A DNA stretch of 49,181 bases, the filler included, from Bipalium vagum (lineage: Eukaryota), in NCBI GenBank assembly GCA_037834085.1. It is 3 parts of 3 records of this genome, joined end to end, with 100 filler letters (N's around TTAATTAATTAA, not from the genome) between each part and the next. Parts side by side here need not be neighbours in the genome. Positions count along the whole stretch, not along the records: positions 16,565 to 32,853 come from JBBMKC010118103.1; 2 more parts are not named here. The stretch is one strand, 5' to 3'. The notes beneath the pieces were generated by a model. It saw only the letters and a program-made list of their open reading frames with translations, did not search any database and was not told the DNA's origin. Numbering within the stretch: position 1 is the stretch's first letter; the number at the start of each line of letters is the position of its first letter. The translations under genes were made by a program, and so were the position numbers. Below are positions 1-40,828 of this stretch, in pieces.

Positions 1-582
1 AACATTTCACAGACCACTTTTCTGTTTTCAATTTGCCTATTGTCCAGTTTATGCGGCACCCATTTCCCTTCCTTTAAAATCTTACCCATTGCCTTTAACC
101 TATCAGAAACTTTTTGTCGGGCAACATCTAGTTGCAAGGCAAGTTGTTTCTGAGTTTGGCAAGGATCTTCATTCAAAAGGGCTTGGATTTCTTGATCTTC
201 AAATGATAAACTTCGACCTGGGCGTCCAATATCTTTGATACTGAAATTCTCATTTTTGAAGCGTTTAAACCAACGCTCGCAGTTGTCTGAGATGGAGCAT
301 GGTTCCCATACACCTGGCAAAGTATGTGGTAAGTTTCTACCGCAGTTCTTTTCATAATAAAATAATTTAAGATCACCTCCCGCAAATGCTGTCTTTCCGG
401 AATAAATAGTGTCATGTTTAAATCTAAAAAGAATATTAAAACTTTAATAAAATTTAAATGTTTATCTAAGTAATCAAAACATATCTAAACAAAATACAAT
501 ATTTAAACAATAAGATTAATTTTATCATATATGATAAAAAATGGATTTAAAAATATCTGCATTACTTTCCGGTACACATAAT
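1..582 (-). mobile_element. Mariner transposon, Mos1/mauritiana-like, 5' half; frameshifted transposase, runs off window start
   Basis: ORF 415-173 MTLFIPERQHLREVILNYFIMKRTAVETYHILCQVYG resembles the Mos1 N-terminus. After a frameshift near 270 the frame reads GRPGRSLSFEDQEIQALLNEDPCQTQKQLALQLDV...MGKILKEGKWVPHKL (mariner WVPHEL motif). TIR-like TATTATGTGTACCGGAAAGTAATGCAG at ~556-583. Confidence 0.9.
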
Positions 583-1559: not shown

Positions 1560-1960
1560 CCCTTTAATGATCGTTTATAGAACCAAATCATAACTAAAGA
1601 TGAGAGATTGATATTCTTCCATAATTATGACAGAAAAACGCAATGGGTATCTACTGGTAGTGCCAAAAAGAGATGGTAAGCGTATAATGAAATTTAGAGG
1701 GAATTATCCACTTTGAGCTGGTTCCTAGATATACCTCAGAGTTGTATGCAGAGCAGTTGGAACGTGTCTATGACATTTAAAGACACGTTATCAAAATTTA
1801 ATAAACAGAAAACGCTCTCTATTGCAACATGAGAGTCATCCTCTCATCAATCTCATTTTGATTACAGCTCAAATTCGGAAAATTGGTAGCGCGCAATTAC
1901 CTCCAAATCCACCAAACATTCTGGACGTGGTACCTTCAGACTACGAATTATTTCACTTTA
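1560..1960 (+). mobile_element. Degenerate mariner transposase catalytic-domain remnant
   Basis: Broken frames give IITKDER (ITGDEKW-like), GIIHFELVP, SELYAEQLERV, LLQHE (LHDNA-like) and PPNILDVVPSDYELF (PPYSPDLAPSDYHLF-like). Confidence 0.75.
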
Positions 1961-2229
1961 TTTTTCTTCTCTTGTGTACAATTAAATAAATTTTATTTTA
2001 TGAGAACAGGCTTGTCATACGCCCTAATACATTGTATATATTGGCTATGTATGTGTCACAGTTAAATATTTTTAAAATATGAGTGCAAAATTAAAAGATT
2101 AATTTATTAACACTTAATATTTTTCATTATTTTCCATAATCACCAATAGATTCATGAAATCTGTAATAGAATAAATAAACAAAACTTTATTGGGCTGAAA
2201 AATTAATTTGGAAATAGTTTAAGGAAAAA

Positions 2230-3848: not shown

Positions 3849-4952
3849 CGTGGTGCACTCAATAAGTTCTTGCAAGATGTGGGAAGGAAATATAATTTTG
3901 ACATGCAATAAAATTTTTATTTTAACTATATTGTTATAGGTTTGATTAATGTAGTATCTTTCAAATTTTCATTACGGTTTATATTGAAATTCGTGGAATT
4001 TTTAATTTTATTACAATTCATGATAGATGAAGTGGAATATCGCAGAGTTATAAAGTTCCTGGTAATACACCATGTTCCCAATGAACAATTTTTTTCCCAA
4101 TTGAAGGAGACATAGCGAGAACTCTTCTTCATGCAGAATAATGTACAAGCGGGTTTCACAGTTTAAACAGGGGAGACAATCAGTCTTTGATGACCAAAGG
4201 ACCAATATGAAAAATTTATAGAAAAATGTGAATCTTTACTGCTAGAAGATCGTCGAATCAAAACTGGTTGATGCTGTTAGTGTGACCAAAGAAACCGTAC
4301 AAGTAATTCTGCATAAACTGGCAGTGACATAGATGGCTTCCCGATTTGTTCATCGCTTTCTTTCATCAAAGAAATGTGAGAAGCGCCTGGAATGCTCTCA
4401 GGCAAACCTTCTTCTTTTCCAACGGAATGGTGAGACATTGCTGCGAAATATCTCACAAGATGAAACCCATCTCAGTCTGAATCTTTCAGAATATAAACGC
4501 GAGTTAAATAAATGGAAATTTCCAGGAGAATCAGGTTGCAGGAAAATGATGTGGAAATATATGATTTTTTTTCGATTTTGCTGAAAAAAACCAGATTCAA
4601 ATCTGCACACTACATTCTCGACGAAAAGCACATAACATTCCAATGTAGTTTCTCCTGTACAATGTCCCAAACCATAAACGTGGACTATCCTCCCTACAGT
4701 CCAGACCTTATCATCAGTGATTTTTACCTCTTAAGTGAGATAAACATTTTGCAAATGTTGAAGATTTGAAAGAAAAGGTCGATTAAAAAGTGTATTCTCT
4801 GAACTGATCTACACTGGCAAAAGTGTGTAGTTGTGAATGGATCTTATGTTGAAAATGATTTCTATATATGTCATATGTTACTGTGTCAAAGTTGAGTGTT
4901 CCATTAAATTGCCTTGCTAGTCATAGCACGAAAATATGGGGCGTACCACGTA
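3849..4952 (+). mobile_element. Mariner transposon remnant (irritans/Himar-like), near full span, multiply disabled
   Basis: MIDEVEYRRVIKFLV at ~4020, FKQGRQSVFDDQR, LLEDRRIK, SRFVHRFLS (ARWVPRLL-like), SQDETH (TGDETW-like), YPPYSPDLIISDFYL. Imperfect TIRs CGTGGTGCAC.. (3849) and ..GCGTACCACG (~4950). Confidence 0.85.
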
Positions 4953-6178: not shown

Positions 6179-13917
<7,739 letters not shown>

Positions 13918-14199
13918 AACTTTTATATAAATATATTAATGTATAATTTTTTTAAAAAAGACAATCCGCTTAAGAATTCTTAGTGTTCACATGTGATTTT
14001 AAATATAATGCAAAAATATTTATTTCTGTTAAACAATTTAGTTATATAATATGATTTTATATTTAATAAATTTTAACGTTGTAGAATGCCTTTTTAGAGA
14101 GAAAATTGTTAACCTTTGTAAACTTTTAAATCTAAAATAAAGACTATAAACTCTATCTTTGTTTTTAGCTAATATTTATAGGAGCAATGATCATTTTAT

Positions 14200-16464
14200 G
14201 TACAGTTCGGTTGTGTGAGATTTCATTATATAAGACTGTTCTGGCAATGCATTTCTAATAAGGCTCATGTCTTATATACTGTTCGAATCGACATTATATT
14301 CTAGAATTAAGGACTCAATTATAATATTAATTTTATTAGAATTACAACCATTATCAATAAAATATTCGTCATCATCGATACATTTACCAAAAACTGAAAT
14401 TAATAGAGTGACAAGTAAAATTAAATTTTTTGTCAAAAGTTGTCTCAATTTTTTAGCTTTACTCAAAAAAGGTATTTCATAATTACAAACTGTATCATCA
14501 GAAATTACAACTTCAAATTTAATCGATGTATAGGCTTCCTTTGATTGTCTGAGACTATGGCCATATTTTAATAAGATTTGGTTTAACTCTTTTCGGTGTA
14601 AATCTGAAAAGGTTATCCAGTTTCTTAATTTATTAACTGTTTTTTACAAAATTTTAACTGGTATCGGCCATTGATTTATTTCATCGATAATACTTTTTAT
14701 TTTTGTGTGATCCAAACTGCTTTTTACTAATTCTTGACTCAATTTTACGGGAATATTATTCATATATTTACGTTCTTCGTCACTTAGCTCTTTAAATGTA
14801 CTAACCATTTCTCCTGTAATGACTTCTAGCTCATAGTTTATTTCTATTAAATTGTACCATCATGAAATGACTCCACTTTCCAATAAACGTTTATCTTTAT
14901 TGAGTGAAGATCCATAATACAAAAGTCTAACTTTTCTTTCTAATTGTTCTTGTAAAAATATTTTTATTTCTTCACTGAAGTATGTAGAGCTACTAAATTT
15001 TTTATTACTAAATTATTCGGATATTTATAATGAATATAAAATATTTCGTCATTAATTGACCATTCTCTTACTATTTTCTGTACTAGTTGTAACTAAGTAC
15101 ATTTTGGGAGTGTATTACATCTTAAGAAATGTTTCACTTCTTCGACATTGTCTATGGGTATTTCACCATTTACCCATTTTGTTGCTATGCCTACTGCTAT
15201 ATGCAACTTTGCTGCTTTCTCAGTAACTATAGTTATGGGTGTATTAATTTCTTTTTCTTGCTCTTTAAATATGTCAATTTTTAAACATTCTTCTCTTAGC
15301 ATTGACTCTAATTATTCTACTCGAGACATATGTGCTTCCAAAGTATCCTCATTATTATTTTGAGGTTCGCTTACTACATTTATATTTCTTTGGGCCATAG
15401 TAAAACTTCTTTGAAAATGTTCATATCGACCACTTATGAAGCATTTCACTTTTCTTTCTATATTAACCTGTTGCTTTTGAGGGGAATTAAAATTTATACT
15501 TCTGCAAACTGTGCCAATATGGCCTAATTTACCACATTGTAAACACTGTAAATTTACTGCTCAGAATTCTGCTGTATTATGATTATTTCTACCACATTTA
15601 TTACATTTTTTTGTTATCGTACCTTGAACTTTTGAATTTAACGTGAGCATTCCTTTAGGAGGCGTATATGGCATTCTATTATTATTGTTACTGGCATTAA
15701 ATGGTTTATTAACTTGTTCATTAAAACTAACTTTTTTATTTATATTACAATCTCTTGAACTGTGTCCCATTTGCTGGCACTTAAAACATTGCATCATTTT
15801 ATGATTTCTTTCTGGTGATGGGGTATTGTATCCTGTTATTTTCTGTTTTCTTGTTGATGCAACATTAGTGCATTTTTTATTTCTCTTTTTAAATCTGACC
15901 ACCACTGATCCTTTACTATTACTTTTGTGTTTTCATCCCATGTATTCTGTAATCCAAATGCTCGCTGTGCTACTGTTTTTAATTCGTACGTGTATTCTGT
16001 GATACTTGTAGTTCCTTTCTGCTTTGTATTTTAAAACTGTTGCCTGAATAAATTTCCTGTATCCCCTGTAAATATTTGTGCTTCTAATGCTGCTTTTATA
16101 CTTTGCCAGTCTTTGTGCTCATTTTTCCTTAACAGATCTAGATATGCATCTCTAGCTGCTCCTTTTAAATAAATTGGTAACCTGTTTATTATTACTTGTT
16201 CATTGAATCCATATGCCCTCATGGTTATATAATAATTTGCTAAGAAATCAGGTAATTCTGTAGGGTTTCCATTATAAGCATCAATCTTAATGTACCCTGT
16301 ATACGTATTTCCATCATTTTCTCCCCCTTTATTATTATTCATATTATTATTAATATTATTAAGCTGAACTATGATTCTTTCTATAGATTCTTGAGTTCTA
16401 GTTGCAGTTAATTGTCTTTTCAAATTTAATTCTTCAGTTACTTTTTCTCTTATTTTTTCTAAAC
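14200..16464 (-). mobile_element. Decayed Ty3/gypsy-like LTR retroelement internal region: Gag (capsid + ~4 CCHC knuckles) followed by two ubiquitin-like domains; pol core absent
   Basis: Capsid-like IDAYNGNPTELPDFL...LPIYLKGAARDAY...QKGTTSITEYTYELKTVAQRAF (in-frame stop at 16031). Knuckles CFKCQQMGHSSRDC, CNKCGRNNHNTAEF, CLQCGKLGHIGTVC and degenerate CFISGRYEH. The frame 15000-14272 has only two stops and contains UBL-like motifs. Truncated by the gap at 16465. Confidence 0.8.
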
Positions 16465-16564
16465 NNNNNNNNNNNNNNNNNNNNNNNNNNNNNNNNNNNN
16501 NNNNNNNNTTAATTAATTAANNNNNNNNNNNNNNNNNNNNNNNNNNNNNNNNNNNNNNNNNNNN
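16465..16564. other. Artificial scaffold linker N44-TTAATTAATTAA-N44
   Basis: Exactly 100 bp; the 12-mer has stops in all six frames; identical copy at 32854-32953. Confidence 0.95.
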
Positions 16565-28220: not shown

Positions 28221-28868
28221 AGAAAATAAAGTTGAACTTCGAAATCAATTCAGGTCTTTTATCAAGGTTAATTGAAATATTTATGAATTTAATATTTCTT
28301 ATATAACATCAGTGTATAAATGTTTTTTAGAATTCAAGCTTACAAAATGATTTTTAATTAGCGGAGCGTTTTATGAGAGCGCATCGATCTTAATAGCGAT
28401 CACTTTTGTTAAATTTAAATAACATACTATATAGTTACTAAAGTAAAGCTAAAAATTAATTACTTTGAGATTAAAATAATCATTTAAAACAAAAACAAGA
28501 TGATGTAGCTATATCGAATGAAATCCGAAAATAAATTTAGAAATATATTAAGTCATAATATATTCTAACACGTTAATTTTTTAGATACTTGATAATTGTA
28601 ATGAAGAATATTTAGATGTCATTAAAATTTCAGAATTACATATTTATTTTTTTCCTAATTCTAAGAGTTAACACGAAAAATTTCAAAATATTTCCTTTTT
28701 ATTAATATTACATCCCTGGCCAATATATAAAAAATCAATATAATAAATAATACAATAGAATTAATCAATATTACTATAGCTTTTTAAATTCAAATTTGAT
28801 ACTTTACCATTAAATTTGTATTTCGCCACATACCACGCGTTTTATTTGCTTTTATTCTTGTTTGTAAA

Positions 28869-30428
28869 ATGAGCGATACAGAAAGAAAAATTTGTCGATA
28901 TTTCAACACTCTTGGGGGTTGTTGGTATGGCGAAAAATGTAAATTTATCCATCTGCTTAACAAAAAGCCTCCTTGCAAATTTTTTGGGTTTGTAAAATAC
29001 AGTTTCATAAAATAAAGTAATAAATGATAACTATAACTGTAGGTCATCATCAGGATGCAGATTCGGAGATTCCTGTCATTTTAGTCATGACAGAATACCC
29101 TTTAAGTCGGTTGAGAATTACGAAATCGGTATCTCAGAAGATATCAAAGAAGTAAAACAGGTAAAATAAAATATTTGAGCGGATTTTTACTTTGAGATAG
29201 GATTACAAAGAAAACATGAACCCAAGTGAGTTAACAGGAACAAATAACAACAATATGGAACAAAATTTAAATATTACAACTAATATAGATATAATGATTA
29301 GTAACGCACCAGTTCCGGAAATAACCATTGATTTTTCATCCAAAGAATCAAGCATGGGTGGAGAGATTGAAGTCCATTGTGGTAAAATGTTTCGAGCTAA
29401 TCTTGTCAATTTTTATGTATTATAATATACAGGTTCTTGTAAACGTCTACTTGACAAGCAAACTAATGAGAGCTATTGCAACATACTTAAAGATCATTAT
29501 TTAGAAAGCTTTTTAGATAAGGAAGGTGATCATGTCAAATATGTAAAATTTAAGGCAGCTCTTGACCCAGGACAAATGTACTGGTGTAAAACTTGCATTC
29601 TTATATTTGAAAAACCGTGGTCATTATTTCAACATATGGCTGATAAAGCAAAAGGAAATAAAGTCCAAAGATGGGAGAAAAAAATACACCTCGACTGGCT
29701 GGATACAGTTGCTGGACTTATGGCTGGTTAAGAAATTAAAAGTTTTAGTAATGAGAATATTATATTTTTCAGGTTATGATTTAGGACTATTTAATCTTGG
29801 AAAATTAAGAAATGATTTGCGAAATTTATTAGCAGACCAACATACAATTGAAGAAGAAATGGAAGCAGCAGCAGTAACAGCGGCCGCTATGATGCAATGG
29901 CTGAATCCAGCAACAATCGGAAATCCATGGAGATTACAACAGCGAGAAATGATGAGAAAAATTGAACAGTTGAACCGTCAAATGTATCGAAAAGGAGGAA
30001 GAGGAGTGAACTGGGCATTGCTTACAGGAAATGGTACGAATAATTTCGTATTAGGGTCTCCTAATATTCCTGGACAAATTACTAATACCCCAAGTTCAGT
30101 GGTTTCATCAAGAGGAATGATAAGCAATGTAACAAGCAATGGTGCAAGTTATAATCGTTTGCCGATTGAAGCAAGTGGCGATTCTGCTGAAATATGCGGT
30201 TTGCAACTAATACAAAGTGAAACTGCAAATCTTGAACTTAATGAAAATATAGAATCTGATACTAAAGGCGAATACAAAAGCGACATTGAGGAATCAAACT
30301 TAAGAAAATCAAACTCTGAGTTACCTGAAAAACATCACACGTTAGACATCGTGAAAAATGAATGGATAAATCAAGAACATGTTTCAGAGCTTCAATCGAA
30401 ATGGAATGAATCCTTCTCCTCTGTTTGA
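28869..30428 (+). CDS. Uncharacterised protein with N-terminal tandem CCCH zinc fingers and two C2H2-like fingers, 5 exons, ~455 aa
   Basis: Exons 28869-28987, 29043-29160, 29201-29381, 29433-29726, 29773-30428 (1368 nt; GT-AG introns of 55, 40, 51 and 46 nt; phases consistent). Two C-x8-C-x5-C-x3-H fingers, CRYFNTLGGCWYGEKCKFIH and CKFFGSSSGCRFGDSCHFSH (second one assembled across intron 1). Also HCGSC...KDHY and YWCKTCILIFEKPWSLFQH. Confidence 0.85.
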
Positions 30429-31109
30429 AACTTAAACAGACTTTCTAACTTTATCCATTGAAAGATGTAGTAAGAATTTGTTTTGTGGACTAAAGACCGA
30501 ATTAGGAATTGTGTTGAGTAATTTTGGAGCGCTGGCGCTTTAAATTTTATTCAAATTTTCCTTTTCTATTAGGTCATTGTGGTAAATATTTCATTCTTAT
30601 TATTCTTATTATTATTATAAATGAAAGTTATTTCTGTTACCATCAAATAAAAAATAGTTGTCAGTACAAATGTTTATGGTTAAAACGTTTTTTTAAAAAA
30701 TTGAAATTTAACTGTTTTTCCAAAAGATTAAGTTCTCAAAAATATTTTTGAAGAAAATTAATATTTTTATTACTTTTTACGGAATTAATTTTCACAATGA
30801 ATTAGGAAATGCTACGATAATTGATAAAGATTTAAATGAATTCAGTAATTTTCAGATTTGATTGATATATTATTCAATTAAATTTCAAAATTTCCATCAA
30901 GTAAAAAATCAAAATTATAAACGTATATATATAATATTATTTTGACTTGTAAAATAGATGTAAATATGTGGTTGAAAGTAGATAATTAAAATCTACAAGG
31001 TCTACAGGTTGAAAATGTGCATAATTATTAAATGGATCCAAAACCACAATCTAATCCAGTAAAAATCTTAGTAAAGTTAAAATTAAAGTTAATCACTAGT
31101 TAATATATA

Positions 31110-31550
31110 TGAGGTTGGCAACTAAGTTCCCGCCGTTTTTATAAATTGTAGCATTTCGCATCTAATTAAATTTTTTTGTTTTAATTTTTTAAATTAATCG
31201 ACAGCCACTAATTTGTTCTACCGCAATGTATGAATTTTTTATCAATTTCTTATATTATATATTGATTAATGGATTAACCCGCCATATTCACCCGATTTGG
31301 CACCAACGGATTTCCACCTCTTCCGATCACTTTCGAATGCTATGCGTGGAGTTTCGTTCAATGATGATGCAGAATTGAGAGCTTGGTTGGATAAATTTTT
31401 TGAGTTGAAACCGGATGATTTCTACAAACAAGGTATTGAAAATCTTATTGGACGTTAGGAAGAAGTTATAAACAACAATGGAGATTACATTACTCATTAA
31501 TTAATTGTTTATTTTTTTGAAAAACGGCGGGAACTTAGTGTCCAACCTAA
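31110..31550 (+). mobile_element. Internally deleted non-autonomous mariner (441 bp) with both TIRs and TA target duplication
   Basis: Left TGAGGTTGGCAACTAAGTTCCCGCCGTTTTT and right AAAAACGGCGGGAACTTAGTGTCCAACCTAA, flanked by TA on both sides. Internal PPYSPDLAPTDFHLFRSLSNAMRGVSFNDD...FYKQGIENLIGR*EEVINNNGDYITH*. Confidence 0.93.
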
Positions 31551-32655
31551 TATATAAGTTCTTTTTTGTTTTAATATTTCAAACTAATAGTAAAAAATCA
31601 AATGACATCCGAAAATTTCATACATAGCATTGATTACTATTTTCCTTTCAGTACAAAAAACGGTTTGAGGTTATAGATAGTTATTTCCATTTTAACATTT
31701 AGAACCTTTACAACCCATTCAGAAACTTACATATGGATCTTTCAGATGCAGAGAAATTGTTGGATGAAAAGTCCATATGCAATTTGCAATTACACAGCAG
31801 CAATATAACGCCAACTCAAATAGGTAGGACAGACGCAAAAAGCTTGAAATTGGTTGTCTCAATCTTATTTCGGAAAGTAAGGAGACGATACAAAAATCCA
31901 GTTTCCCTTCTAACAAGATTAAGAAGACGGTGTTTTCTAAAAGATCGTAACGAAGGTTGAAATATGAATAATAACACAAAAGGAAAAATATCTTGCGTTC
32001 TTCCTGGAACTGTATTGTGAAATATCAAAGCAGATAAGCTTTTAATGTACCTTTTGTTTGACAACCTGGTAGTTGTGTACTATGAGTTGATAACACAGCA
32101 TGAACTAGTCATATTCTAAAGGTACATCTTTCCTTTTTGACAAAAAACTTTGCTTTCTATTATTCTTATTAGTAAGAGGGAACTCAAGCAAAAACTTACA
32201 AGATATTATGGCTCGAATATTCAAAAAATTGAATAAATATAAAACCAAATATCAACCTTTTTCGATTCGAAAAAAACTTTTCTTTTATTTTAATATTTCT
32301 TCAACAAAATTTTAATGTAATTTAGTTTCAGTTTAATCAAGCTACATTTGATTATAAATTCGAAAATAAAACATGTATGAAATTTATTTTATTACAAATA
32401 AATAGATCTTCCTTAAGTCTAAACCCATAAAATTCTAACTCAGTATCTTTTTATAGGAAAAAAATTATTAAGCTTTAAACATATAGTGCCGTCCATATGT
32501 TTGGAGCCACCCTGTAAAAATACAAATAATTGTAGATTACGAATTATAATAACTATTTTAAAGTTTTCACTAATTTATTAAATAAAATCTACTTTAATCA
32601 TATTTTACACATTGTTATCTAATATATTTTTATATTTTTAGAAATATTTTGGTTA

Positions 32656-33579: not shown

Positions 33580-34362
33580 GCGTCTTAGTGCTAATTTCTT
33601 GTATTCTGTATCCACTGGGCTGGCGCAGCAACTTTGAGGTGGCACAGATTTGCGGGGAATTCACATCAATTCTTTCTCTAGGTATGCTGTGCCGCTGTTG
33701 AAGTATAATTTAATAGTGTTTTTGTGGTGTGCCAATGTTTTAATATTGATTGAGGAAAATCTTAGGGAAATTTTCACATAGTTTTTTAATGCGAATATTT
33801 CCTGTAATAAAATTAATCATTCTTGTAATTGAACATTGGCTTTGCAGGGAGATGTCACATGGGATGGGCATTTGTCTTAACATGTGCAGGAGGTTTGCTG
33901 TCCTTGTTAAGTACCACAATACCGGCGATTCTTATGAAAAATTCGTGCAACATTGTTATTGATAGACAGAAAAATTTCGGTAATAGACGTAACAGTGAGT
34001 TGTTTATTGATTGTTGGGGAAAACGTTGAATTGACCTTCTTCATCCAGTCTCTCTACCGTCTACCACGAGAGAAAGTATGCGATATACTGGTGAAATTCC
34101 GTTCCGTCCAATATCTCAAAATACTGCTACCAACGGAACACGGTATAGTTATGTTAGCTATCAAAGTTTATTGGTACCTAATACTTTGAACTCTGTCAAT
34201 ACCAATTCTATTGTTCGAGGTGATCTAGGTCCTCGACAACCAGGTTACCTTCATCCCGGATATCGATTCATTGCGCCCAACCATACGACTCAATTGCTGT
34301 CTTCCACAGCTGCTTCAGAAAGTAACCGAAGTACAAACAGCAGTAAGGATAAAGATACGTGA
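33580..34362 (+). CDS. LHFPL/TMHS-family tetraspan membrane protein, last three exons only (5' exons not found)
   Basis: Exons 33580-33681, 33848-33979, 34049-34362 (all phase 1) give GVLVLISCILYPLGWRSNFEVAQICGEFTSILSLGRCHMGWAFVLTCAGG..., matching the LHFPL signature YPxGW...VxxxCG.....LGxCxxxWA, followed by a low-complexity cytoplasmic tail. Confidence 0.82.
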
Positions 34363-36070: not shown

Positions 36071-39000
36071 AAAAAGTTTTTTTGGTTTGCTTTGATTTTT
36101 CTATTAATAGATTATACTAAATATACCCCCAATCATTATTAAAAGTCAAAAATTTTAAATATATAGTATAAAAAATTATACTGACAATGAAGATAAAACT
36201 AAAATCAAAGATAATGGAAAACCGTTCAAATAACCATTTCCTGGCTCACCAATAACAAACCATGGTGACACCTTATAATGAAATATAATCTTTAAATTAT
36301 TACTTTCAAATTTTATTACTTTATTCGCAATTAATTGAATTTATAAATCAATAAATTACCTTTCTGATGTCAATACATGTCACAACCAAAAATTTTAATT
36401 AATAAATAAACATCTTATTTTTTCACTTGTGGTATTACAGTTTTTTTGAACTAAAAAAATCAATATAATTTTAATGAATAATCAAAAAAACTAATAGATG
36501 TGAAAAAATCAATTTATCTAAGAAGAAAAATCAATTTTTACAATTTCTTTCTTAATTAATTTTTTTCTTTTTCTTTTCTAAATTAAAATTGACCAAATTT
36601 TTCTTTAAGTTTTTTTTGTATAACAATTAAAATATTTTCTATTACATTCTTTTTTTTTTAATAAAGAAGTGTTTAAATTCATTTCTTTTAATTATTCATT
36701 TGAATTTAATTTCCCACTGAATTATTTCAGAGACTAATATATATTTTTAAAATCTTTTATGACTGAATTTCTGTTTTTTCACTTTTTAATTAATTTTTGA
36801 CATTATTTTTAAAATGATTAATTCTTAATAATTACAACCATCTGTGACCCCGACCTTGTAACAGTTTTTAATAGATTAGATTGAAAATTATTTTAAAAAT
36901 AAATTGGAGATTTTTTTATTTTTTATGAAAAATAAGGTTTCGGTAATTCTTGTTGTAAAATATCTCTATTGGGAATCGGAAAAATATTTAGAAATAAATT
37001 ATGAACTCAAAAAACGAAAAATATTTCCAGTTATCACTATTTTTAAAACTGTTAAATAAAAAAAATTATCGTTTAAACGGAAAAAATGAATTCTTTAATT
37101 AGAATCTCTTTGAAAATGTAAATTCACTTTAAAATTAAACCACCTCAATCTAAACGCCTTACAAAACTGGTATAACAACTTGTTTAATAAATTACCAAAA
37201 ATTATTTTAATGAAAATCAATGTCCCAAAGAAAGGGGGTAAAAAAAATTAATTGTAGGAAAAGATTGATTAATTTCAGATATATAACAGACTCCAATAGT
37301 GAATGTTTGAATATAAAAGTAGTGTACAAATCACAAATGTTTGTAAGAAAATAAGACTAATGGGATTTTACGTTTTTTAAAATTACAAATATAATAACCA
37401 TTTAAATGTTCGAATCTAAATGAGAATTATGCTTTAATTAAAACCGAGTTTCAGTCTACACTGGGAATATTTAATATATGAATATGATAGTTTATACTTC
37501 CTGAGAGCGGAATAACGAGTCGGGTGATTATTTCACCAGACTTTAGTTGTCAGAAGTAAAATTAAATAAAAGTAACTGGAAGTAATTATTTACTTAAAAA
37601 CAGAAACGGGAAATTATATTCAAATTCTGTTATAATTAATTAAGGGCGGTGAATATGATAATTCACTTACATTTTATTTGAATTTGATAGATGAGTTGTA
37701 ATAAACTCATTTTCAATTATTTTAGTTATAATAAACCAATAAAATTTGTTTAATGATTAATTAAATTTTTTTAAAAATAATTTTTAAATATGATAAACTA
37801 AAATGCCGAATTTTGAAATTATAATTTTGATCACTTATTTATACTTGTTTTTATGTTAATTTATACTGCCTTTTAATATTCTATGACGTCATTATGCCTA
37901 ATGAAATTTATTTTATTAACATGTTCTGAAATTTAAAAAAAAACTTCATAAGTTTAAATCAGTTTGTATAATAATATTTTAATAATTTTTATTAAATAGT
38001 TAAATGAAATGCTGCTTTCATAACAATATTGTTTAATTTTATTCAGCTTGCCACAATTACGATTGCAGTTGAATGGACATCCGTTTAGGGTTATAATTTT
38101 ACTCTTAATAATCTTAAAGGTTATATTTAATTTAAGCACCTGACTTTTATGCTTTTCGAATTTCAATACCTATCAAAAAAATTTTCTTTATATTTAATTA
38201 ATAAATGTTTATTTATTAATGTCAAAATCAATATAATCATTATTATTAATAACAAATCAGATTTTATTTAATAATAATTATTTAATAGTATCGATTACTA
38301 TCAAAAATCTCAGCTTATTTCTCAATTGTCATATTTCACATAAAAATTAAATAATGTTAAATCCGGTTTATATGAATTGACTAGTTGCTATTAATTATTT
38401 CTTTTCCACTCCCACAGAAACTTTGATCCCTTCTAATGATTTTATCATGTATTTGGTACACTATATTCTGTTTCTAAACTTGCCTAATAATAGTCAAGTT
38501 TAAAAATTTTTATATATGTAAATATATATGACAGCAGTCATCTGTGAAATTTCATATATTTTGATATCTGGTTATTGATAAAGTTAATATTCCTAAATAG
38601 ACTACCATCAGCATTTAGAATTTTATCAATTTTTAACTGAATAAAATTAAAAAACCAATTTGTCTTCCAAAAATACCTCAACTAAGCTCAGGTTTATTCA
38701 GACTGCACTTACTTTAAAATATAAATTTTAAACTGTTTCGTCATAATTGTTAATATTTGTAAACAATTTCAACTTAGAAATTTACGAATGTGCACGCGCA
38801 GTTGAATGTTTAAAAATTACTGATTACTTTCGAGCAACAATTAACAAATTGATTTTCAATTATCATAATATCTTATTTTAACGAATCTCAGTTTATTGGA
38901 AAACTTACATCCAATCTAAGGTTACTTATCAATTATTATTAATTATCTAACATAGAAATCTTCGTTTCCAACTCTCATGTTTTTGAACTGACAATCAAAC

Positions 39001-39155
39001 AAACAATAAACTTAGCAAACAACCGAAACTTACTCTGAAAATTCATTTTCCAAAGAGACAACACAAAAAGAAGACTTAAAAACCAACCGATAAAATAAAT
39101 TTTGGCCCAAAAAGCAAGACTGAACCTCATAAATCGTAAATCGTTTCGCGTCTCA

Positions 39156-40828
39156 TCAATCGATCTTATTATCATCACCGCCATCACCAAAATGTGATTG
39201 TTTATCATTACCATGACGACAATTGATCAAATCATTGGCCGCGCTGAGTACGACTTCTTCCCAATGTTCCTGCCACGTTCCGTGTCTGGAATGATTGACA
39301 ATATTGTCACGATATCGATCGATAATCGATAATTCGGATTGGTTGTCCTTTTTCGATTTCATTTCCGATAACAATTCTACGAGATGTTTCACCAGACCAT
39401 CGGTTCCACTGAAAAGGCGCCCATTGATTTGATCGATGAGAAGTTCGTGCAGACATTTGTAATTGAGAGCAAGAACAGGCAATCCCACGCTAAACATGTC
39501 AACAATCTGGATCGGCACATGCGCACATACAAACGAATCAATCATGAAGACAAACAAAAACAACACTCACTTTCATTGGCAAATCGAGACCACTGGTGCT
39601 GTTGTGCAAACAGATACCGATGTCGGCCGCCGATAACATGATCGGGTAATCATCGATTTCCAACCACGGGGTTATGACGGACACGTGACACCATTCTTGT
39701 TCGGAAATGATTCTTTTGAAATAGTTTTTCAACGGACCGCGTCCTGATAGACAATAAACACCGATTAATGATATTATTTTGTAAATCAATAAACAAAAAT
39801 CCATTTTATCTAAGATAAAAACTGATCCCGGCCTAATATCTACTCTGTCATTCAATTTTACCTGTGATAACACAAATCAAATTTGGCAATTTTTCACCGG
39901 CGCTTATCAATTTGTTGTATTGATCCAAAGCTTTGAACAGGGTGTCGAAATCGTCATCGATTGTCCAGCTACAACTGCTGACAATGAGAGCTGGTCTTTC
40001 AACTTTGTATTGGATATTTCCATTAATTGATGTTGTCGTCAAGGCTGTCTCTTTATCCGATTCAGTGCTTGATTTCAAAACGGGATAATTTTGTCCCAAC
40101 CTAAGTTAGTTTTCGATTCAATATCAAGCGATTGTGGCAAATTTATATTTTACTTCATGATCAAATCGTGAATTAGTTTCATGTTCCGTTGGCCGTCGAC
40201 TTTCCAAGGCCAATCATAAAGCAAATTAGCTTTGATCTTCCATTTCAACAGTAAATCATTCAAAAATGCTTTGCTAACACAGAAATGTTCTGCCTGAAGA
40301 CGATGGGAGAATTTCACTTCGATATTTTTATAAAATCTAAAATTATACTGAAATCGATAGACTTCGAAAAATCAAATTTCTATACTTGGTTAACATACCA
40401 TCGCCATGAGAGCGGTTTTTGTTCATCAACGTATAACCGTAATTGTGCCAATCGATCATTACATTTATGCGCCTGATTTTCGAAATTAGCCATACAACAA
40501 GAAATGTTGGCACTGCCGGAGGATTTTGAATCATGATTATATCAGTCCATTGACATTTTAATAAGAAAAAAAATAAAGAAATTGTTGTGAATAGAACTTT
40601 AAGAAATAAGAATATTATCCGTTCTTTTCTTTGATTGATAAATGGAGGAGATTCTTTAATTGGGTCAACAATTATATTTTCATTGTTTGTTAATGAATGA
40701 GATAAATCGGAATGTACATAACCAGAAAAATATACTTTCCAGCCAGATTTTGAAAATGATATACAGTGATTTTTCATTCGTGGTGAACAACCAAGATCAC
40801 CGAGTACTAAAATTCTGACAGAACTCAT
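39156..40828 (-). CDS. ALG1: Chitobiosyldiphosphodolichol beta-1,4-mannosyltransferase, 5 exons, ~462 aa
   Basis: Exons 40828-40386, 40336-40154, 40100-39862, 39743-39571, 39506-39156 (1389 nt). Motifs VLGDLGCSPRM, QNPPAVPT, IDWHNYGYT, RPALIVSSCSWTIDDDF, ITGRGP, SADIG-type [21 protein letters not shown]. Confidence 0.96.

Follow-up and report, generated by a model that had tools for sequence, protein, structure and literature searches.

A Bipalium vagum copy of the flatworm testis gene zc3h31 and its predicted double-zinc core

The TTP/TIS11 proteins are defined by an 18-residue spacer between their two CCCH zinc fingers and by a (R/K)YKTEL lead-in before each finger. Flatworms possess a further gene with a CCCH finger pair, C3H-zinc finger protein 1 or zc3h31, described as a testis marker in two species and through an RNA interference (RNAi) phenotype in a third. 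Here we analyze a 49,181-nucleotide (nt) stretch of DNA from Bipalium vagum (hereafter the window), AT-rich and with short introns, in which the gene at 28869-30428 on the forward strand is, as judged by homology, the planarian copy of this flatworm gene; Schmidtea mediterranea protein P0002 and Dugesia ryukyuensis transcript TR34243 represent the same gene in other planarian species. We consider it moderately probable that the product is a male-germline mRNA-binding adaptor, with putative RNA binding and putative partners. Its conserved core domain is an undescribed part of the gene.

The published evidence comes from relatives of the window's gene. In D. ryukyuensis, TR34243 is considered homologous to the S. 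mediterranea gene and serves as a testis marker; sexual animals exceed asexual ones 5069-fold in its expression, which sets in at week 3, later than nanos, and it is among 27 genes lowered by RNAi of nhr-1, dmd-1 and klf4l (PMC12654950). Three TR34243 primers translate to finger 1 and tail peptides of the family, with 5/20, 7/21 and 3/20 bases mismatched to the window. Schistosoma mansoni zc3h31 was screened as a germline-stem-cell-enriched gene and was one of 6 among 39 genes with a male germline defect, its RNAi causing spermatogenesis defects in which differentiation was hit and proliferation unaffected (N = 6; PMC7817839). Both S. mansoni primers translate to peptides unique, among the proteins compared, to P0030 of Schistosoma rodhaini. 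Fasciola hepatica D915_005258, linked to the family by name only, is a testis marker (area under the curve 0.979) confirmed by fluorescence in situ hybridization, in a paper that credits the gene name to Wang et al. 2010 (PMC11484910). The gene was not mentioned in PMC3224759 under the terms tried. Given the testis-marker data and the S. mansoni phenotype, the gene cannot be called hidden, nor does it act as a stem-cell factor in general. An earlier note on this DNA had presented it as a hidden gene of unrecognised architecture and a candidate germline or stem-cell granule factor. The germline role stands, while sexual-specific expression in D. ryukyuensis and spared proliferation in S. mansoni speak against the stem-cell part; the architecture is novel as regards the core, which lies outside any Pfam family, and not as regards the gene, which has carried a name since 2010.

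Orthology is supported by several lines of evidence. A search with exon 4 returned 34 of 83 candidate proteins at 66-99% identity, and the 30 for which a species is named are all from flatworms; other flatworm relatives are annotated as 'CCCH domain-containing protein 31' in flukes, tapeworms and a monogenean. The window protein is identical to P0002 at 367 of 456 alignment columns (80%), with regional values of 64/66 in the finger region, 22/35 in the linker, 179/182 in the core and 77/140 in the tail, where the window has a 15-residue stretch absent from P0002 before the same C-terminal end. In a tree of 35 core sequences the window falls nearest to P0002 (distance 0.015), inside a three-row set supported at 100/100 and a 21-row flatworm clade supported at 96/96; the stem of this clade is long, its inner branches are short, and the program warns that long-branch joins may be false. 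Core identity between the window planarian and most flukes and tapeworms is 79-83%. The parasite zc3h31 proteins share the finger pair with its 7-residue spacer, an xxNNN motif, the double-zinc core (66-83% identity), an ASGD motif and, in relatives, testis expression. Full-length parasite proteins differ in being longer (~565-830 residues) and in ending with a GF..EV.ELL.QG.KPW module that is absent from the window. Some automatic labels in the family are misleading: the 'RING-type E3' UniRef label of P0008 and the 'Helicase ATP-binding' label of P0033 are unsupported by Pfam scans, and 'CCCH domain-containing protein 31' is a name that presumably originates from a DExH helicase.

On this homology the gene is real, with five exons separated by four GT-AG introns of 40-55 nt (Table 1), and it occurs in one copy within the window. 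The earlier note had proposed an intron-split gene with four mini-introns encoding 455 residues. Translation of that model (introns 28988-29042, 29161-29200, 29382-29432, 29727-29772) from the ATG at 28869 to the stop at 30428 meets no internal stop, and GC content is 32-38% in exons and 17-25% in introns. Because an open reading frame by itself leaves 288 GT-AG combinations, 32 of them with four introns, candidate models were scored against homologues, and the evidence for splice junctions is thus protein homology. P0002 is continuous over all four junctions, and its alignment is free of gaps at junctions 1, 3 and 4. The best of the tested models, both against P0002 and against seven parasite proteins summed, starts intron 2 at 29152 and encodes 452 residues; the runner-up under the same scoring uses the donor 9 nt downstream, at 29161, and yields the 455-residue product. 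The end of exon 2 was placed at 29151 by tblastn. Open frame and homologue alignment therefore uphold the four mini-introns, and the protein is most likely 452 rather than 455 residues long, with intron 2 beginning at 29152, although both donors may be in use. Directly upstream of the ATG, at 28820-28868, the planarian-like protein P0051 reads through with few residue differences, a sign that a 5' leader or promoter element may be conserved here.

The CCCH pair at the N-terminus is canonical, as the earlier note had described, with two C-x8-C-x5-C-x3-H fingers 7 residues apart. Both match zf-CCCH in Pfam, finger 1 above the cut-off, and a six-frame scan of the window finds the pattern in finger 1 alone. 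At C2+2/C3+2, finger 1 has Y/F and finger 2 has F/F; aromatic residues at these positions stack on bases. The best PDB sequence matches of the alignment profile include TIS11d and tristetraprolin, with both aromatic positions aligned. This finger type points to mRNA binding by the pair and, as in TTP/TIS11 proteins (including planarian zfs1), to likely post-transcriptional control in the germline. Unlike these proteins, the window protein carries an extra core, lacks the (R/K)YKTEL lead-in in an alignment to 1rgo, and has a spacer shorter than theirs, 7 against 18 residues, as previously noticed. The 7-residue spacer recurs in all 12 flatworm rows in which both fingers are matched, and outside flatworms the spacer spans 7-20 residues.

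Closely spaced CCCH fingers are also found in makorin, CPSF30 and ZC3H4/KIAA1064, from which the window protein differs in having no RING, no five-finger array and no match beyond the fingers. The Pfam families listed for 27 members of the family include no RING, which is likewise missing from the Cys/His pattern of the window protein, and no helicase or NYN domain, in agreement with the earlier statement that a makorin RING, helicase or NYN domain is not evident. That the protein might be a testis-specific nuclear pre-mRNA processing factor, acting in 3'-end formation or splicing in the manner of CPSF30, appears unlikely on these grounds: CPSF30/Yth1 is defined by five CCCH fingers, the window protein has two and no zinc knuckle, and the matches favouring this reading are non-significant and expected of any CCCH pair.

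The most conserved part of the protein follows the linker. In a 24-row alignment, from which P0175 was excluded, H158, H170, C188, C191, H204 and H222 are present in 24/24 rows, C136 in 22/24 and C139 in 21/24. These eight near-invariant Cys/His positions lead us to read the core as two predicted C2H2-type zinc sites whose histidines stand unusually far apart (11 and 17 residues). The putative ligands are accordingly C136/C139/H158/H170 and C188/C191/H204/H222, and the histidine of HCGSC, previously taken for a finger ligand, is not conserved. In the predicted structure of P0036, which shares 52% core identity, the zinc domain is modelled with predicted local distance difference test (pLDDT) values of 88-98 as a beta-hairpin with two helices, another hairpin with three, and a separate helix corresponding to the flatworm PWRLQ stretch. 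RKGGRG, which follows this helix, is found in the two planarians and not in flukes. A Pfam scan of exons 3-5 and of the core returned nothing over the cut-off, the matches to Sirohm_synth_C, JIP_LZII and CrAss_Ring_2 (E 0.03-0.2) being dismissed as chance, and a structure search with the whole model of a relative, rather than the core alone, as query gave no significant match for the core. A first fold of P0002 with 23 close sequences reached a mean pLDDT of 45 and was not used as a search query; a homodimer prediction for P0002 residues 126-312 scored 0.00, which is evidence neither way.

Two C2H2-like sites could also suggest that the protein binds DNA and regulates transcription of the testis programme. 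The first half of site B (CxxC-x3-F-x5-L-x2-H) lends this idea some substance, as the wider family profile matches PRDM9 and Zif268 over ~23 positions there, and feature neighbours in the ESM Atlas are C2H2 proteins, all scoring below 0.9 (0.87 and 0.84 at best) and to be taken as leads only. Classical C2H2 fingers (PF00096), however, form tandem arrays with H-x3-5-H, against H-x11-H and H-x17-H here. Both sites are predicted to lie within one helical domain with neither tandem array nor canonical linkers, and a PF00096 match at E<=0.1 is seen in just 4 of the 27 members. We thus regard a transcriptional role as improbable.

Flanking the core are variable segments that carry short motifs. The linker contains an xxNNN motif that is positionally conserved, undescribed and resembles, in its sequence, the SPSB/Gustavus degron. 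NNN occurs in the linker of 16/16 flatworm rows, mostly 33-35 residues past finger 2, against 4.06 expected from shuffles, in rows that are related and of which three have mis-set linker bounds. Outside the flatworm clade, [DE]xNNN lies 27-38 residues past finger 2 in 4/15 rows (0.04 expected), representing two or three independent lineages, and Patella relatives carry DINNN. The ligand consensus of SPSB/Gustavus is (E/D)(L/I)NNN (PMC2923778). The window motif, G-T-N-N-N-N, departs from it, with Gly-Thr in place of (E/D)(L/I) and no acidic residue. The positional conservation, within and outside flatworms, would suit an RNA-linked ubiquitin-pathway adaptor, makorin-like without a RING of its own, that recruits to messenger ribonucleoproteins (mRNPs) either a CRL5 ligase of the SPSB type or a module that binds ubiquitin, and transcripts annotated as SPSB and as C3H-zinc finger protein 1 fall together in a planarian data set (PMC6881696), where they are identified by annotation and not by sequence. 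Against such an adaptor stand the mismatched window motif, the small number of independent lineages outside flatworms, the absence of the C-terminal module from planarians and the fact that a protein with a degron would be a substrate, not an adaptor; we give the idea a low probability. SPSB terms had 0 matches in the D. ryukyuensis supplements searched, a set that leaves out files 13-17. The tail, described before as disordered and acidic, comprises two parts, an uncharged Asn/Ser-rich one (313-365) and an acidic one (366-452), so that the description fits the second; it is variable and modelled with low confidence, except for the ASGD motif. A second motif, SNNTNS, is seen in parasite proteins (P0005 and relatives).

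The reading we favour, that of a male-germline mRNA-binding adaptor, would combine these elements as follows. The gene would be activated in the testis downstream of nhr-1, dmd-1 and klf4l, as shown in D. ryukyuensis, and the N-terminal CCCH pair would, from its finger type, stack onto single-stranded mRNA. The double-zinc helical core and the helix that follows it may dock onto a conserved partner or onto a second RNA surface, setting the translation or stability of spermatogenic mRNAs, a role suggested by extreme conservation together with the lack of a catalytic signature. Short docking motifs would sit on the disordered linkers, and xxNNN might, more speculatively, time removal of the protein. 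Loss would impair spermatogenesis and leave stem-cell proliferation unchanged, as shown in S. mansoni.

Several points weigh against this reading. No paper found reports RNA binding, localisation or partners, and none turned up on the molecular activity of the gene or on its core domain, in searches whose coverage excluded most subscription papers. The TTP lead-in motif and 18-residue spacer are absent, and the AU-rich specificity of TTP is therefore not transferable. Testis expression and the spermatogenesis phenotype come from relatives and not from the window's species: the S. mansoni knock-down is given one sentence and N = 6 worms (PMC7817839), and the F. hepatica gene is tied to the family by name only. 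Among the trematode members that carry a name and were tested, those of Schistosoma diverge most (core identity 66-70%), and the C-terminal module missing from planarians is retained in at least S. japonicum and S. margrebowiei.

A further alternative is that the protein defends the germline from transposons or viruses. Genome-defence factors share germline expression and a zinc-rich RNA-binding anatomy, and their loss often causes sterility. We hold this alternative to be improbable. Nuclease, PARP, WWE, Tudor and helicase domains are all missing from the Pfam families listed for the 27 members, and ZAP/PARP12-type antiviral proteins are defined by a four-finger array with WWE or PARP, features that the window protein lacks. 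The gene is near-silent in asexual planarians, whose stem cells need silencing too, and the flatworm core is extremely conserved rather than fast-evolving. No evidence was found for the antiviral or anti-transposon role put forward in the earlier note.

Beyond flatworms, 498 matches at E<=0.001 came from a profile search across 1.84 billion representatives, and the best 150 of them were listed. Among the 173 proteins collected up to that point, a hidden Markov model (HMM) of the core scored >8 bits in 52 and that of the C-terminal module >15 bits in 54. Two more searches then contributed 13/6290 and 16/7999 candidates, among them full-architecture relatives in molluscs. The mollusc relatives, uncharacterised C3H1 proteins of Haliotis asinina, Patella, Lottia, Dreissena and Mercenaria, have the CCCH pair and the eight-ligand core and additionally the C-terminal module; they differ in core sequence (22-29% identity in the five tested), in spacers of 10-20 residues and in lacking the flatworm helix. 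Since molluscs share the full architecture, the family is at least spiralian, and the near-invariant version is, by these sequence comparisons, flatworm-specific; lineage restriction, suggested earlier, hence holds for the highly conserved version and fails for the architecture. The searches, which were not exhaustive, returned no named vertebrate member. In P0177 of Mercenaria a MYND-finger segment lies between CCCH pair and core, which could reflect a true gene fusion or a chimeric annotation.

The C-terminal module comprises 34 residues and closes many otherwise unlike CCCH proteins (P0005 726-759, P0054, P0154, P0182 and others) of worms, molluscs, fungi and a fern, including fern CCCH and basidiomycete TPR-CCCH proteins. 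It is predicted as two short helices (pLDDT ~90) and matched no Pfam family. Neither the window protein nor any of the window's six frames gives a score for it, no downstream exon encoding it was found in those frames, and it is also missing from P0044 and from P0002; as the planarian namesake P0002 lacks it, the module is no criterion for the planarian form. On sequence evidence, the module is undescribed and was lost by planarians. A bolder interpretation would make the core an undefined double-zinc helical domain without solved relative, part of an ancient family that combines CCCH pair, double-zinc core and QG.KPW module, and the flatworm protein a near-invariant mRNP regulator of spermatogenesis timed by an SPSB-type NNN degron, in a Vasa-Gustavus-like switch acting on a different RNA-binding protein. 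As no named vertebrate member was returned by these non-exhaustive searches, the protein could then be a fertility factor of parasitic worms without host counterpart. We hold this to be conceivable and rather doubtful.

As gene discovery the analysis adds little, since work on other flatworms already provides a name, a localisation and a knock-down for the orthologue. It joins the planarian, schistosome and liver fluke literatures in one gene family, corrects the helicase, RING E3 and 'protein 31' labels and defines a tractable unknown, a zinc domain ~80% identical across free-living and parasitic flatworms in a protein required for schistosome sperm production.

Table 1. Coordinates of gene and protein features on the window (residues of zinc sites in 452-residue numbering)
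Feature	Position	Strand	Remarks
Exon 1	28869..28987	+	Start codon, CCCH finger 1, beginning of finger 2; 100% identical to P0002 residues 1-40
CCCH finger 1	28893..28952	+	Residues 9-28; aromatics at C2+2, C3+2; Pfam PF00642 39.1 bits (cut-off 20.5)
CCCH finger 2	28974..29088	+	Residues 36-55; split by intron 1
Intron 1	28988..29042	+	55 nt, GT-AG; donor looks weak
Exon 2	29043..29151	+	End at 29160 with alternative in-frame downstream donor
Intron 2	29152..29200	+	49 nt; donor 29152 has best homologue score; alternative 29161-29200, 40 nt
Exon 3	29201..29381	+	Variable Asn-rich linker and first core Cys
xxNNN motif	29228..29257	+	34 residues past finger 2; candidate SPSB/Gustavus-type docking site, strict consensus unmatched here
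Conserved core	29363..30005	+	Residues 131-312; 179/182 identical to S. mediterranea
Zinc site A	29378..29533	+	C136-x2-C139 ... H158-x11-H170; putative metal binding
Intron 3	29382..29432	+	51 nt; interrupts first CxxC; protein P0001 shows read-through
Exon 4	29433..29726	+	Bulk of double-zinc core; 66-99% identity to 34 proteins
Zinc site B	29585..29689	+	C188-x2-C191-x12-H204-x17-H222; putative metal binding
Intron 4	29727..29772	+	46 nt
Exon 5	29773..30428	+	Core end, flatworm-conserved helix, RKGGRG, disordered tail, stop
Flatworm-conserved helix (PWRLQ...RQMY), then RKGGRG	29925..30005	+	Helix is 268-290 in P0036
ASGD motif in tail	30171..30182	+	GASGD-like; conserved in flatworms
First AATAAA past stop	30646..30651	+	Candidate poly(A) signal

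Other elements of the window were recorded alongside the gene. About 700 nt downstream of it, 31104-31556 is a short element, probably an internally deleted mariner, whose inverted arms of 42 nt are 88% complementary and lie 369 nt apart; a 60-codon stretch within it (31276-31455), with no Pfam match, has what we take to be a resemblance to a mariner transposase C-terminus. Coding-looking frames without a Pfam match at 31703-31960 (+) and 33750-34362 (+) are possibly exons of a neighbouring gene. On the reverse strand, ~6400-13935 holds GART, a trifunctional purine-synthesis gene of many exons with GARS_N, AIRS_C and formyl-transferase matches; 15312-16516 a Gag-like retroelement remnant with CCHC zinc knuckles, interrupted by stops and an N gap; and ~38975-40828 a glycosyltransferase family 1 gene with a weak Pfam match, presumably similar to ALG1 mannosyltransferase. 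A probable GATA transcription factor lies at 22357-~23900 (+), where a 262-residue Asn/Ser-rich exon precedes a GATA finger match under the cut-off. Further mariner-like fragments are located at 173-484 (-), with an HTH_48 match, and, as judged by eye, at 1774-1989 (+) and 4333-4769 (+).
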